Shown piece by piece: positions 6,533-63,065 of a stretch of DNA of 64,000 bases. The DNA is taken from assembly GCF_054482595.1 (NCBI RefSeq), contig NZ_CM137008.1; one strand, written 5' to 3'. The position numbers were made by a program, and so were the translations under genes. How positions within the stretch are numbered: the stretch's first letter is position 1; each line of letters opens with the position of its first letter. The notes beneath the pieces were generated by a model, which saw only the letters and a program-made list of their open reading frames with translations, searched no databases and was not told the origin of the DNA.

Positions 6533-7141
6533 ATGAAAATCAGGCTACTGATCCTCAGCCTGCTGGTTTCTGTGCCTGCCTTTGCCTGGCAGCCGCAAAC
6601 TGGCGACATCATCTTTCAAATCTCTCGCTCATCGCAAAGTAAAGCGATCCAACTGGCGACCCATTCCGATTACAGCCACACCGGTATGCTGGTGATGCGT
6701 AACAAAAAGCCCTACGTTTTTGAAGCGGTCGGCCCGGTGAAATACACCCCGCTCAAGCAGTGGATTGCCCATGGTGAAAAGGGCAAATACGTTGTTCGCC
6801 GCGTTGAAGGCGGACTGAGTGTTGAACAACAGCAAAAACTGGCGCAAACGGCGAAACGTTATCTCGGCAAACCGTACGATTTCAGCTTCTCATGGAGCGA
6901 CGATCGCCAGTACTGTTCGGAAGTGGTGTGGAAGGTTTATCAGAATGCGCTGGGAATGCGCGTGGGCGAACAGCAGAAGTTGAAAGAGTTTGATCTCAGC
7001 AACCCGCTGGTCCAGGCGAAGCTCAAAGAACGCTACGGCAAAAATATTCCGCTTGAGGAAACGGTAGTTTCACCACAAGCCGTTTTCGACGCGCCACAAC
7101 TCACCACGGTCGCCAAAGAATGGCCGCTGTTTTCGTGGTAA
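6533..7141 (+). CDS. yiiX: YiiX family protein (permuted papain-fold/NlpC-P60-like putative lipid-binding hydrolase) with signal peptide
   Basis: 202-aa ORF MKIRLLILSLLVSVPAFAWQPQTGDIIFQISRSSQSKAIQLATHSDYSHTGMLV..., recognised as YiiX. Confidence 0.9.
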   Translation: MKIRLLILSLLVSVPAFAWQPQTGDIIFQISRSSQSKAIQLATHSDYSHTGMLVMRNKKPYVFEAVGPVKYTPLKQWIAHGEKGKYVVRRVEGGLSVEQQQKLAQTAKRYLGKPYDFSFSWSDDRQYCSEVVWKVYQNALGMRVGEQQKLKEFDLSNPLVQAKLKERYGKNIPLEETVVSPQAVFDAPQLTTVAKEWPLFSW

Positions 7142-7285
7142 TGGATGATAAAAAAAATAATTCCCGCCGTAGTCTGTTTGTTGCTTTGTAGTTGCACGAC
7201 CTTTCCGCAAGCTGTCGCTCCGGTAAACGGTGATGCCTCCAATTAGTTGAATTAAGGATATAATACTCGCTTTTAAGGTTGTTTC

Positions 7286-7558
7286 ATGGTCACAGTTAAC
7301 CTTCATTGTCCCCGTTGCCAGTCCGTTCAGGTTTACCGTCACGGGCAGAACCCCAAAAGACATGATCGATTCCGCGGCCGTGACTGTCACCGGGTATTTC
7401 AGCTCAGTTACTGTTACGAGCCCCGTAAACCGGGAGTTAAAGACCAAATCGCTGAAATGGCTTTCAACGGTGCCGGGGTTCGCTATACTGCCCGTACGCT
7501 GAAAATCGGCATTAATACAGTCATCCGAACTTTAAAAAACTCTCGCCACGAAGAATAA
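7286..7558 (+). CDS. insA: IS1 InsA-like protein (zinc-finger/HTH)
   Basis: 90-aa ORF MVTVNLHCPRCQSVQVYRHGQ...NGAGVRYTARTLKIGINTVIRTLKNSRHEE; CxxC...CxxC layout and C-terminal LKNS tail as in IS1 InsA, but strongly diverged. Confidence 0.8.
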   Translation: MVTVNLHCPRCQSVQVYRHGQNPKRHDRFRGRDCHRVFQLSYCYEPRKPGVKDQIAEMAFNGAGVRYTARTLKIGINTVIRTLKNSRHEE

Positions 7559-7990
7559 CGTCATCCCCGGTCGCTCATGCTGATGTGGCACTCATCTGCG
7601 AACTTAGTCAGCAATGGAGCTTTGTCGGCAGTAAAGCGCGACAGCACTGGCTCTGGTACGTGTACAACACGAAAACTGGTGGTGTTCTGGCCTACACTTT
7701 TGGCCCCCGGACTGATGAAACCTGTCGTGAATTGCTGGCGCTGCTTACCCTTTTACCATCGGCATGTTGACCACTGACGAATGGGGTAGTTACGCTAGAG
7801 AGTTACCAAAGGAGAAGCATCTGACTGGTAAGATTTTTACTCAGCACATTGAGCGTAACAATCTGACCCTGAGAACCCGAATCAAACGTCTGGCCCGCAA
7901 AACCATCTGTTTCTCGAGTTCTGTAGAACTTCATGAAAAAGTCATCGGTGCTTTTATCGAAAATATATGTTCTACTAATTGGAGTCATCA
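7540..7990 (+). pseudogene. insB: IS1 insB-like transposase region carrying an extra frameshift
   Basis: InsB-like similarity (QQWSFVGSKARQHWLWYVYN...) continues in one frame to a stop near 7770, then resumes in another frame (YPFTIGMLTTDEWGSYAREL...HEKVIGAF). Confidence 0.6.
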
Positions 7991-58109: not shown

Positions 58110-58741
58110 AACGACGTGACACCATCGTGCGCTACACCGCGCCGGAACGTATCAACCACTGGATCACCGCCTTCTGCTTCATCCTGGCGGCGGTGAGCGG
58201 GCTGGGCTTTTTGTTCCCGTCCTTCAACTGGTTGATGCAAATCATGGGCACACCGCAGCTGGCGCGAATTCTGCACCCGTTTGTCGGCGTGGTTATGTTT
58301 GCCTCGTTCATCATCATGTTTTTCCGTTACTGGCATCACAACCTAATCAATCGGGATGATATCTTTTGGGCGAAGAATATTCGTAAGATCGTCGTCAACG
58401 AGGAAGTAGGTGACACCGGGCGTTATAACTTCGGTCAGAAATGCGTTTTCTGGGCGGCGATTATTTTCCTGGTTCTGCTGCTGGTGAGCGGCGTGATTAT
58501 CTGGCGTCCTTATTTTGCGCCTGCTTTCTCAATCCCGGTGATCCGATTCGCGTTAATGCTGCATTCATTTGCCGCAGTGGCGTTAATTGTGGTTATCATG
58601 GTGCATATCTACGCCGCCCTTTGGGTGAAAGGCACGATTACCGCCATGGTGGAAGGATGGGTTACCAGCGCCTGGGCGAAGAAACATCACCCGCGCTGGT
58701 ACCGTGAGGTCCGCAAGACAACGGAAAAGAAAGCTGAATGA
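58106..58741 (+). CDS. fdoI: Formate dehydrogenase-O cytochrome b556 (gamma) subunit
   Basis: 211-aa polytopic [40 protein letters not shown]...; overlaps fdoH stop. Confidence 0.9.
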
Positions 58742-59859: not shown

Positions 59860-59950
59860 TGCGCTTATCAGCCCTACCAATAAACTTCAATATATTGAAT
59901 TTGCATGACTTTGTAGGCCGGATAAGGCGTTCACGCCGCATCCGGCATGA
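59860..59950. repeat. REP/BIME element downstream of fdhE
   Basis: gcctgatgcgctgcgcttatcagccctac ... tgtaggccggataaggcgttcacgccgcatccggca. Confidence 0.85.
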
Positions 59951-59996
59951 ACAACGCGCACGTTGTCAGCAATCTGATTGACATCATTTTTTCCCA

Positions 59997-60215
59997 TTAC
60001 CATTCCTCGCGCAGCTTACGCTGATATTCGACACCATCTTCCTCACACCCTTGCCAGATGCCAGGAACACTGGTTCTTGCTGTTTGCGATTGATTTATCA
60101 GGTATTGATCTACCGCTTCCCTTAATAGGTCCGCACGAGGAAGATTACGCTGCACCTCGAGATCATCAAGTTGCTTAATCACCTCATTCGATAAATCGAG
60201 TAAAATTCTGCCCAT
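59997..60215 (-). CDS. yiiF: Small ribbon-helix-helix (CopG/MetJ-like) putative regulator
   Basis: [42 protein letters not shown]... (72 aa from ATG at 60215); gene name assigned from position next to fdhE. Confidence 0.65.
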
Positions 60216-60458
60216 ATCTATACCTACCAGAGAGTTCATAAATATCTCGCCAATATCATTTTTGAATCTATGGAGAGAAAAGTACCCTTGTCGAATCTTT
60301 AAAGAAAGCTCATTTACGAATCATTTTTTATTTTTGCGAGGCGTTTTCCAGATATGATGTAACAGTTGCAGTTATTATAAGTTCAAGTAAAACAACCTTG
60401 TATTAATACCAGAATAAGGGCATCTGGTTTTTTATATTCAAGAATAAAAAAATTTTTG

Positions 60459-60677
60459 TCATTCCTTATGATCCTTACACTGATCATAAACACCTACTGT
60501 CTCACCCCTTTGCCTGCCTCTCTTTGCTTTACGCACCGGAAATTGCTGCCGCTCCAGATATTGCTCAACCGCTTCGCGTAAAATTGCAGATCGTGAAACC
60601 TTACGCCAGCCCCGAAGCTTGTTCAGCCGTTTAATTGCCTCTTCTGATAAATGAAGAAAAACCGTATTCATCGCCAT
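60459..60677 (-). CDS. yiiE: Small ribbon-helix-helix (CopG/MetJ-like) putative regulator, paralog of the upstream gene
   Basis: MAMNTVFLHLSEEAIKRLNKLRGWRKVSRSAILREAVEQYLERQQ... (72 aa from ATG at 60677); shares the LxxEAVxQYL RHH signature and a homologous upstream region with yiiF. Confidence 0.65.
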   Translation of the reverse strand: MAMNTVFLHLSEEAIKRLNKLRGWRKVSRSAILREAVEQYLERQQFPVRKAKRGRQRGETVGVYDQCKDHKE

Positions 60678-61262
60678 TACCACCACCTTACATATATTAC
60701 TCATTAATGTATGTGCGAAAATTACGCCGGAAAATCATTTAAAAAAAGCGGATTTTTGCATGTTGTTTTGTTTTTGCGAGGTGTTTTCCAGAAATAATAA
60801 GAGTGTTGCAGTTGTTTCATTTATTACTCAAAAATGGTTTAGTTATCGCCCAGGATGAGTTATGGATGCTATGAATATATTATATTCAGAGATATTTATT
60901 TGCATAATCTGAATGGTGTAGCCGAAAAACGTCAGCATCCTAACAGCACCAGGATTTAAGGTGAAATTAATCATCCATCACAGACCGGTCAGTACTGCCA
61001 CCAACCGGTCTTTACTTGTTCATCGTTATAATTTTGTTGGTAACAGTTCGGGAAACAAGGAATTCCTTCCGGAACCCCCCGGTATCATCCGATAGCATTG
61101 ACGTCAATCATCAGCGCGACGATGAGTTTTTTTAATCGCATCATAGGGTGGCGACGTTCAGCACGATTACGGGTCATAGCAAAACTCCTGGGCAGGCGAC
61201 CACTATGCCGCTTTCACAGGAGTTCTGAATGCTAGTGCTTTCTGTATGGCATAACCATGCCT

Positions 61263-61553
61263 CTAACGGTTAAGTGCTTGCAGCACATGTTGCGGATCAT
61301 TGGCAATCGCTCGCAGCAAAGCCTTTGCAGGCCCGGTCGGTGAACGTCGCCCCTGCTCCCAGTTACGCAACGTGTCTACGCTTACAGAAATAAGATCGGC
61401 AAATTTAGATTGTGACAACCCTGAAGCGCGGCGTATTTCTTTGATTTTCATAGCATCAACTTCAAAAGTCCGCGAAGGCTGTCGCGTTCCTTCAATAATT
61501 TCATTCATCTGGGCCATGCTGTGAGTCAACCGCTCAAAAAGTGCCTTATCCAT
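61263..61553 (-). CDS. XRE-family HTH protein, putative antitoxin (HigA-like)
   Basis: 96-aa ORF MDKALFERLTHSMAQMNEIIEGTRQPSRTFEVDAMKIKEIRRASGLSQSKFADLISVSVDTLRNWEQGRRSPTGPAKALL...; HTH_XRE signature; starts directly after the upstream toxin ORF stop. Confidence 0.8.
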   Translation of the reverse strand: MDKALFERLTHSMAQMNEIIEGTRQPSRTFEVDAMKIKEIRRASGLSQSKFADLISVSVDTLRNWEQGRRSPTGPAKALLRAIANDPQHVLQALNR

Positions 61554-61865
61554 TTACCACCTCGTATTTAACAACCGGAGCATTGCTTTTTCCTGGGGAG
61601 ACAGATCATCTTTAATACCCTTACGATAAATAAGCAGTAATCTGATCTCATAATGTTTAACCTGATGAAAGTAAATAACCCTGACACCAGCACGTTTCCC
61701 CTTTCCTCCTGAAACCCATCGAACCTTTCTTAACCCACCAGTTTCAGGTATTACCTCACCATAGTCAGGATTCAAGGCCAGGAAAAACTGAAAACGACTG
61801 AATTCATCGTCGGTCAGCAGTTTTTGAACATCTTCAGTAAAAATTTCCGTTTCGATGAAGAGCAT
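61554..61865 (-). CDS. RelE/HigB-like type II toxin (mRNA interferase family), toxin-first operon
   Basis: 103-aa ORF MLFIETEIFTEDVQKLLTDDEFSRFQFFLALNPDYGEVIPETGGLRKVRWVSGGKGKRAGVRVIYFHQVKHYEIRLLLIYRKGIKDDLSPQE...; small basic protein of RelE-like pattern upstream of an XRE partner. Confidence 0.7.
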   Translation of the reverse strand: MLFIETEIFTEDVQKLLTDDEFSRFQFFLALNPDYGEVIPETGGLRKVRWVSGGKGKRAGVRVIYFHQVKHYEIRLLLIYRKGIKDDLSPQEKAMLRLLNTRW

Positions 61866-62018
61866 AATTATACGCCATTGGCTTAGAGTAACAATCCTTT
61901 TTGTACGTCATTGACGTACCCTTGAAACCACTAGCTTACTGATAGTGCTCCAGCAAAACCACGTCTCTGCCGGGTTTGTCTTTAGATTTGCGAGGCGCTT
62001 TCCAGATTTTTCACGCCC

Positions 62019-63002
62019 GTGAATTTCCCTGTATCCATCCAGCAAAAACGGGTGTATAAGACTGTGCATTCATACAGCAAAATAAGTTCTACTATGGCAC
62101 TGGAAAAAGGAATTGCAGAGTTAGTCGAAAAGTTTATCGCTGCGGGTCGCCCCTCATCGCGTCAACAAAGTATTGCGCAGCGCAGGGAGGGCTATATCGC
62201 CAGCGCTGTCCTTGCGGGTGAGACAGAAACGCGGGTAGATATTCAGACTATCGAACTTGAAGGGATGACCTTACGAATAGTGTCGCCGCTGAATGCCCCG
62301 ACATTACTCCCGACGATAATTTATTACTACGGTGGCTGTTTTGTTAGCGGCGGGTTCGCAACTCACGACAACCAGCTGCGCCAGTTAGCCTATTACGGGC
62401 AATGTCGGGTTATTGCCGTCCAGTATCGGCTGGCACCGGAACATACTTTCCCCGCCGCCCATGATGATGCGCAACGAGGTGCAGAAATAGTCTGGCAACA
62501 CGCCGAACGACTCGGCGTTGATAAACAACGTATAACTCTTGCCGGTGACAGTGCGGGCGGACATCTGGCGCTGGTAACTGCTTTGCGATTAAAGCGTGCT
62601 GGCGAGTGGCAACCGGCACAACTCATCTTAATTTATCCTATGCTTGATGCGACTGCGCATTTCGAAAGCTACATACGCAATGGTCACGATTACATCATCA
62701 CACGCGACACTTTACTGAGCGGCTTTGAGATGTATCTGCCAGGCATTGAACGCAGGCATCCTGAAGCCAGCCCTCTTTGGCGCGATGATTTCAATGGCTT
62801 GCCACCTGTACATATCATTACCGCTGAATACGACCCACTTTGCGATGAAGGTGAAGCGTTGTATCACCGCATGACAGGGCAAGGAGTGCAATGCACCTGC
62901 CAACGCTACCTTGGCGTTATCCACGGATTTTTTCAGTTAGGTGGTATCAGCGAGGCCGCGCGATCGGCACTACGGGATGTTGCCTGGAGAGCGGGAAGGT
63001 AA
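62019..63002 (+). CDS. Alpha/beta-hydrolase, hormone-sensitive-lipase-family esterase (Aes-like)
   Basis: Oxyanion-hole region YYYGGCFVSGG, nucleophile elbow GDSAGG, C-terminal GVIHGFF; true start may be the internal ATG at 62094 (MALEKGIAEL...). Confidence 0.75.
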   Translation: MNFPVSIQQKRVYKTVHSYSKISSTMALEKGIAELVEKFIAAGRPSSRQQSIAQRREGYIASAVLAGETETRVDIQTIELEGMTLRIVSPLNAPTLLPTIIYYYGGCFVSGGFATHDNQLRQLAYYGQCRVIAVQYRLAPEHTFPAAHDDAQRGAEIVWQHAERLGVDKQRITLAGDSAGGHLALVTALRLKRAGEWQPAQLILIYPMLDATAHFESYIRNGHDYIITRDTLLSGFEMYLPGIERRHPEASPLWRDDFNGLPPVHIITAEYDPLCDEGEALYHRMTGQGVQCTCQRYLGVIHGFFQLGGISEAARSALRDVAWRAGR

Positions 63003-63065
63003 CTTCGGACCTGGGCCCTGAAAAGGTTTTCAGATTGAAAACCTTTTCAGTCAAGTAAAACGCCC

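Follow-up and report, generated by a model that had tools for sequence, protein, structure and literature searches.

The closest described counterparts of the element considered here are the CRP-S sites of the Sxy (TfoX) regulon (Cameron and Redfield, 2006; Jaskolska and Gerdes, 2015; Sondberg et al., 2019, PMC6728893), that is, sites at which CRP bound to cyclic AMP (cAMP-CRP) activates transcription solely together with Sxy/TfoX. Sondberg et al. (2019, PMC6728893) cite Sinha 2009 for the E. coli motif, T4G5C6G7A8-6N-T15T16C17C18A19; it is non-palindromic, both of its unlike halves are required, and its orientation is experimentally irrelevant (Sondberg et al., 2019, PMC6728893). In a 64-kb stretch of E. 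coli DNA (64,000 nucleotides of contig NZ_CM137008.1, RefSeq assembly GCF_054482595.1; hereafter the window), a short motif recurs three times, upstream of the minus-strand genes yiiF and yiiE and of a toxin-nadS operon, and each copy is very probably a CRP-S site.

Activation from such sites is class-I-like and requires activating region 1 of CRP, and in the sxy promoter the TGCGA half is promoter-proximal and the TTCCG half distal (Sondberg et al., 2019, PMC6728893). CRP-S sites of the Enterobacteriaceae never have the canonical T at position 6 or the canonical A at the mirror position, 17 (Cameron and Redfield, 2006), and RegulonDB v12 holds an entry for the CRP-Sxy complex with an asymmetric site. 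Toxin-antitoxin (TA) operons under CRP-S control include E. coli hicAB, at its P1 promoter, and toxTA of Haemophilus influenzae, and sxy overexpression raises chpSB, higBA and hokD.

The three copies as predicted CRP-S sites

The sequence TTGCGAGGYGYTTTCCAGA has exactly three plus-strand matches in the window (60334-60352, 60774-60792 and 61988-62006), and no further match was found there at up to three mismatches. Shuffled sequence gives a chance expectation of 0.08, and none of 100 shuffles reached three copies. The near ends of the copies lie 95 bp from the yiiF ATG (60239), 97 bp from the annotated yiiE ATG (60677) and 123 bp from the toxin ATG (61865), close to the spacing of roughly 100-150 bp described when the motif was first noticed, in a sequence-only reading of this stretch. 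These observations support the view that the motif is a real cis element, not a chance repeat, and that it is associated with these small units.

Read on the plus strand, the motif is T-TGCGA-GGCGTT-TTCCA-GA, which is perfect to both CRP-S half-sites, and the three copies are the sole perfect matches to TGCGA-N6-TTCCA in the window. Placed in the 22-bp CRP frame, and assigned to the minus strand of the genes that they precede, site 1 upstream of yiiF occupies 60332-60353 (TGCGA at 60335-60339, TTCCA at 60346-60350, plus strand), site 2 upstream of yiiE 60772-60793 (60775-60779 and 60786-60790) and site 3, in the spacer between the toxin and a hydrolase gene, 61986-62007 (61989-61993 and 62000-62004). 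In all three, the strong half TGCGA, a CRP half-site whose sixth position is C, is present, and the weaker and different TTCCA half stands exactly 6 bp off, which makes the site asymmetric. The bases at position 6 are C (TGCGA) and, on the other strand, G (TGGAA), in keeping with the enterobacterial CRP-S rule.

The right half of the motif, TCGCAAA, resembles a Sxy-dependent CRP half-site. Promoters of the Sxy regulon in strain MG1655 were compared with the 21-mer consensus TTCTGGAAAGCGCCTCGCAAA within 300 bp upstream of each gene. The best match was that of sxy itself, with 18 of 21 positions (TTTCGGAAAGAGCCTCGCAAA), followed by ppdD (TTCTTCGTAACGCCTCGCAAA), ybaV (comEA; ATCCTGAAGCCGCCTCGCAAA) and, in inverted orientation, ppdA, each with 16/21; yifB (comM, also inverted) had 14/21, hicA 13/21, smf 12/21 and hofM 11/21. 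A random 300-bp sequence attained 16/21 in 3 of 2000 trials, and nothing in the window besides the three copies scored above 15/21. Site 1 agrees at 19/21 positions, and site 3 at 20/21, with the consensus that they share with sxy, ppdD and ybaV. The sequence found 136 bp upstream of sxy, TTTTCGGAAAGAGCCTCGCAAATTT, carries the published halves, with TCGCA nearest the gene, as is the TGCGA/TCGCA half nearest yiiF in site 1. The centres of the sxy, ppdD, ybaV, ppdA and yifB matches lie 110-140 bp before the ATG (136-140 bp for the first three), and those of the window copies 106-132 bp.

Natural variation bears on both the architecture and the orientation of the site. In the B2-type yiiE allele of strain AVS0223 (locus L003), the half-sites are kept (TGCGA..ATCCA) and the 6-bp spacer is wholly different, and such a pattern is the bipartite constraint expected of a CRP-type site. 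As for orientation, the site is inverted at a relBE islet, at ppdA and at yifB, and between two loci that encode C4-type antisense RNA.

The window copies thus share with the sites of sxy, ppdD and ybaV/comEA both unlike halves, the 6-bp spacing, the asymmetry and the occurrence in either orientation, lie likewise 105-140 bp upstream of a start codon and agree with the sxy, ppdD, ybaV and ppdA sites at 16-18 of 21 positions. Since the motif matches the known CRP-S site perfectly, yiiF, yiiE and toxin-nadS are probably members of the CRP-Sxy regulon, and the motif is a known kind of site rather than a new element. The window differs from the described regulon in its targets, which are antitoxin-like ribbon-helix-helix (RHH) genes and a TA operon rather than DNA-uptake genes, and in the spacer and flanks, which are far more uniform than the published "6N"; the window sites are predicted from their sequence.

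Several points weigh against this assignment. Two members of the K-12 Sxy regulon, hofM and smf, show within 300 bp no better than chance similarity to the motif, and the hicA region shares just the TTCTGGAA half. In addition, ~11 unrelated contexts agree fully in their flanks and in the spacer A(G/A)C(G/A)CC, well beyond the published 10-base consensus, and recognition of CRP half-sites alone does not explain such uniformity. Finally, the class I spacing, at about -62, -73 or further from the transcription start, is a prediction: in the sequence between site 1 and yiiF, the best sigma-70-like promoter is TCGACA-18-TAGATT (60265-60294, minus strand), a consensus match only, from which the centre of site 1 would lie at about -84.

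Distribution of the site and alternative readings

The exact 19-mer occurs one to three times per E. coli genome (median 2), so that it is no dispersed repeat of E. coli. An occasional extra E. coli copy lies within a ~680-bp relBE islet between nrdG and cybC, inverted and 64 bp upstream of relB. A cross-species scan for the exact 19-mer, with one genome per species, returned ~25 genomes of Enterobacteriaceae in at least 10 genera; unrelated phyla gave ~12 matches, in line with the ~9 expected by chance. The enteric matches fall into ~11 non-homologous intergenic contexts, in either orientation and many of them beside TA modules. They include Gp49/XRE toxin-antitoxin pairs (L016 and L035; Pfam Gp49, E = 1.5e-22), a SymE-like gene (L043), the orthologue of copy 3 in a hydrolase/vapBC spacer (L022 and L032), and a divergent lipoprotein/phosphotransferase system spacer in which the motif is a perfectly conserved island amid diverged sequence. 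The Gp49/XRE pairs belong to the toxin superfamily to which toxTA is assigned, and the two genes in L016 have the same sizes as those of toxTA (119 and 98 aa). Two further contexts combine a C4-type antisense RNA with an open reading frame (ORF) of ~150 aa, the motif lying 150-170 bp upstream in opposite orientations. The C4 RNA (RF01695) was located at L007 863-949, L016 5250-5333, L037 6127-6214, L019 1783-1867 and L028 7359-7444. Between the two locus types, these ORFs are homologous (E = 1e-8); neither type has an NCBIfam match, and one has no Pfam match. One of these locus types lies between clpA and infA, and in L037 it adjoins a type I-F CRISPR array (6881-7987). A literature search on the motif sequence itself found nothing relevant.

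That the motif is an ordinary, weak CRP site independent of Sxy is highly improbable. Its CRP-like features are the TCGCA half and, in the other half, T4, G5 and A8, and CRP alone binds CRP-S sites weakly in vitro (Cameron and Redfield, 2006). Compared with the canonical CRP-N site (TGTGA-N6-TCACA), the window copies share the 22-bp frame, T4, G5 and A8 and the T15C16-C18A19 positions. However, both halves carry a base other than T at position 6 (C or G), which defines the enterobacterial CRP-S site, one half is without G7, and the whole is non-palindromic; sites that differ from CRP-N in this way bind CRP poorly and need Sxy. The motif is, moreover, exact to the Sxy-dependent consensus and close to the autoregulatory site of sxy.

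There is very little chance that the motif is an operator of the RHH proteins YiiE and YiiF, one of two functions offered by the sequence-only reading. Through it the proteins would regulate their own genes and cross-regulate the toxin operon. This possibility draws on the K-12-type genomes, where the exact 19-mer (median 2) stands essentially just upstream of the two RHH genes, and on the RelB and VapB contexts, which also encode RHH proteins. In K-12, however, sxy, ppdD and ybaV are preceded by the same site, and in many genera it fronts operons that are free of RHH genes, having helix-turn-helix or AbrB-type partners or no TA genes at all. It contains no internal repeat or dyad of the kind that RHH dimers use, occurs in both orientations and, instead of overlapping the promoter, sits at least ~40 bp upstream of the best -35 match.

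An origin as the end of a mobile element, or as a site-specific recombination site that moves small TA cassettes, is also very unlikely. It would account for an identical 19-mer, spacer included, in ~11 non-homologous contexts; the motif is at the edge of conserved sequence in two context groups, and the relBE islet brought a copy along with it. Nevertheless, none of the cassettes has a partner copy beside it, whether inverted or direct (30 loci, at up to five mismatches), and no recombinase gene is linked to the motif. The strain-to-strain breakpoints examined lie off the motif, at 61055/63066 in comparison with BL21, and the motif is 95 bp inside the relBE islet; a conserved footprint is seen where both flanks are orthologous. 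Plasmid and phage collections are essentially devoid of the 19-mer, with three matches in viral contigs. Because there are no partner repeats and no split terminators, the examined breakpoints are elsewhere, and plasmids and phages essentially lack it, the motif is a chromosomal site, conserved and independent of orientation, and not the end of a mobile element.

Related candidates were rejected on similar grounds. A junction of inserted cassettes was ruled out by the breakpoints relative to BL21, L003 and the relBE islet, all of them off the motif, and a tRNA-linked attachment site by the lack of tRNA genes in 15 loci. A remnant of a split intrinsic terminator was ruled out as well, no right arm being found elsewhere, although a genuine intrinsic terminator does follow an endoglucanase-like gene in L020 and L047 (Silvania and a viral contig); there the 3' part of the motif supplies the left arm of the hairpin GCGCCTCGCAA..TTGCGGTGGCGC, after which comes a T tract. 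A -10 element directly adjoining the motif was discarded, since the weak hexamers seen in some contexts are inconsistent. In comparisons with the marbox, the Ada box, the SdiA box, IclR-type half-sites and Hin/Gin hix half-sites, the motif gave partial matches only.

A sigma-54 (-24/-12) promoter has practically no probability. Read toward the genes, the motif is TCTGGAAA(A/G)C(G/A)CCTCGCAA, that is, TGG-N9-TCGCA with the GG-N10-GC spacing, and this spacing is correct in the three copies and in the diverged L003 allele. With a weight matrix built from 50 sites from chromatin immunoprecipitation sequencing (ChIP-seq), however, the copies score 3.7-5.2 bits against 7.9 for the weakest real site, and 185-313 positions of the window equal them; no site at yiiE or yiiF was reported by sigma-54 ChIP-seq or by genomic SELEX (systematic evolution of ligands by exponential enrichment) with RpoN, and the motif occurs in both orientations relative to its neighbouring genes. 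The best match to the matrix in the window, CTGGCGCGAATTCTGCA at 58259-58275 in fdoI, is the intragenic sigma-54 site IS47 (Bonocora et al., 2015). The other function suggested from the sequence-only reading, a structured RNA leader (or, likewise, a small RNA), can be set aside: lying 95-123 bp before the start codons, the motif could be transcribed if the promoters were further upstream, but folding of the leaders is no better than in shuffles (z = +1.0, +1.3 and -0.75), no Rfam match falls at the motif with E values of up to 1 admitted, the flanks of one context bear no relation to those of another, and the element acts as a unit in either orientation.

The yiiF-hydrolase locus and its history

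The region corresponds to the E. coli order fdoI-fdhE, yiiF, yiiE, nadS-toxin, alpha/beta hydrolase and fabY, and is identical to that of strain XH990. Across 5,426 complete E. coli genomes, the locus is strongly variable. K-12 and BL21 are without window positions 61056-63065, which comprise the toxin-nadS operon, copy 3 and the hydrolase gene, and copy 3 co-occurs with this hydrolase/toxin module among strains; other strains have DUF6708, ClbS or insertion sequence (IS) insertions at the locus. Between fdhE and yiiF, at 59870-59952, are repetitive extragenic palindromic (REP)-type elements, with sub-threshold Rfam matches to ES036 and naRNA4.

The gene yiiF (59997-60239, minus strand) encodes an 80-aa RHH protein, and yiiE (60459-60677, minus strand; the open frame reaches 60704) a 72-aa CopG/RHH protein. 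The two proteins are paralogues, with 40% identity over 58 aa (E = 3e-12). Copies 1 and 2 of the motif lie within a shared block, at 60294-60376 upstream of yiiF and 60733-60816 before yiiE, both on the minus strand, which aligns at 77% identity and holds, besides the CRP-S site, the sequence GTTGCAGTT (60365-60373 and 60805-60813), kept in both blocks 13-22 bp distal to the site. In AVS0223, homology to the window ends at 60377, just past GTTGCAGTT. A longer block common to the two copies, with GTTGCAGTT in it, had been described before; it spans 84 bp rather than the ~50 bp then given. Because of this 84-bp block and the 40% identity of the proteins, the proposal that yiiF and yiiE are a tandem duplication that took the upstream region with it stands.

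In strain CDE6306 (L004, 4055-4671), a yiiF-like gene is followed by a gene for a VapC (PIN) toxin, and in L022 and L032 (Superficieibacter and Enterobacter sp. kpr-6) a yiiF-like vapB is likewise followed by a VapC (PIN) toxin gene. The window and K-12 have no VapC gene after yiiF. Since CDE6306 pairs a yiiF-like gene with a VapC toxin gene, yiiF is an orphan antitoxin gene of the VapB type. Published reports have yiiE of K-12 bound by H-NS and activated by SlyA; our literature search found no functional study of yiiE or yiiF, and none of the accessible literature links either gene to Sxy.

Copy 3 shares with copies 1 and 2 just the core of 19-21 bp, as had been noted. It lies in the divergent spacer between toxin-nadS on the minus strand and the alpha/beta hydrolase gene (hormone-sensitive-lipase type; 62094-63002) on the plus strand, with the site centre 97 bp from the hydrolase ATG. 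The first gene of the operon (61554-61865, minus strand), earlier called HigB-like, encodes a 103-aa toxin of the RelE/ParE type, which has a weak match to Pfam RelE PF06296 (E = 0.006) and carries the annotation "RelE/ParE family toxin" in strain TW10828. The second, nadS (61263-61553, minus strand), encodes an XRE/helix-turn-helix antitoxin by its RefSeq annotation and by its match to NCBIfam NadS NF041265 (60.7 bits, at the cut-off). Because the orthologous hydrolase spacer of L022 and L032 bears the same site before the yiiF-like vapB-vapC pair, copy 3 is best read as the ancestral site of a hydrolase/vapBC spacer, now followed in E. coli by the toxin-nadS operon. The suggestion that copy 3 had been the leader of a former third unit is partly supported by this arrangement, in which the site fronts a yiiF-like gene.

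Between site 3 and the toxin start codon, at 61903-61919, lies a perfect palindrome, GTACGTCA-A-TGACGTAC, which is a likely operator for NadS/the antitoxin, and a likelier operator than the motif. An upstream CRP-S site combined with a separate, gene-proximal antitoxin operator is the arrangement of hicAB P1 and toxTA, to which site 3 and the palindrome would correspond. The window differs from those systems in its protein families, namely a VapBC-derived orphan antitoxin, YiiE and a PF06296-like RelE with NadS, and the hicA region matches the motif in one half, at 13/21.

At 62062-62077, 17 bp upstream of the hydrolase ATG, is a LexA-box-like sequence, CTGT-N8-ACAG (CTGTGCATTCATACAG), with a putative function, which the orthologous spacers of L022 and L032 retain. 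In AVS0223, an insertion of ISEc53 and ClbS lies at window positions 62067-62073, within this sequence, and the sulA-sxy spacer of K-12 likewise pairs a LexA box with a CRP-S site. Given that CRP-S sites work irrespective of orientation, site 3 might also act on the divergent hydrolase gene, by analogy a possible second target.

Predicted regulation and its meaning

If the three copies are CRP-S sites, the behaviour of the family suggests how they would work. On accumulation of Sxy together with high cAMP, CRP-Sxy would occupy the site and then activate a downstream sigma-70 promoter in a class-I-like manner, through activating region 1 of CRP and the alpha subunit of RNA polymerase. In this way yiiF, yiiE and toxin-nadS would be switched on with the competence (DNA-uptake) regulon, and the divergent hydrolase gene perhaps with them. 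Local repressors could act on top of this control, namely H-NS, LexA at the hydrolase gene, and the RHH or NadS proteins, each bound to an operator of its own.

The uniformity of the spacer and flanks may reflect additional recognition by CRP-Sxy or a copied promoter module. Across ~11 unrelated loci in at least 10 genera, the entire 19-21-mer is identical, down to its A(G/A)C(G/A)CC spacer and its TC and AAA flanks, and the sites of sxy, ppdD and ybaV, which were chosen independently, also have GCC at spacer positions 12-14. Such a recurring spacer would indicate sequence-specific contacts, or a requirement for DNA shape, contributed by Sxy. It is a tentative idea, and in our judgement rather unlikely, that CRP-Sxy reads far beyond 10 bases and that the Sxy regulon has also repeatedly captured TA modules and C4-RNA operons; the captured modules would then be VapBC, YiiE-type RHH, RelE/NadS, Gp49/XRE, RelBE, SymE-like and C4-RNA operons, and, if this were true, the induction of competence would be systematically coupled to toxin-antitoxin expression.

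In summary, the result for the motif is mostly a clarification, in that it is assigned to a known type of transcription-factor site, and what is possibly new is the site between toxin-nadS and the hydrolase gene and the link with TA modules across genera. The assignment provides a candidate regulator, the competence switch CRP-Sxy, for yiiE, yiiF and an accessory TA operon that is absent from K-12, and possibly the same regulator for a hydrolase gene with a LexA-like box. The short list of TA operons wired to competence, hicAB and toxTA, would be extended to several more families and genera, which bears on the question of when chromosomal toxin-antitoxin systems are expressed.

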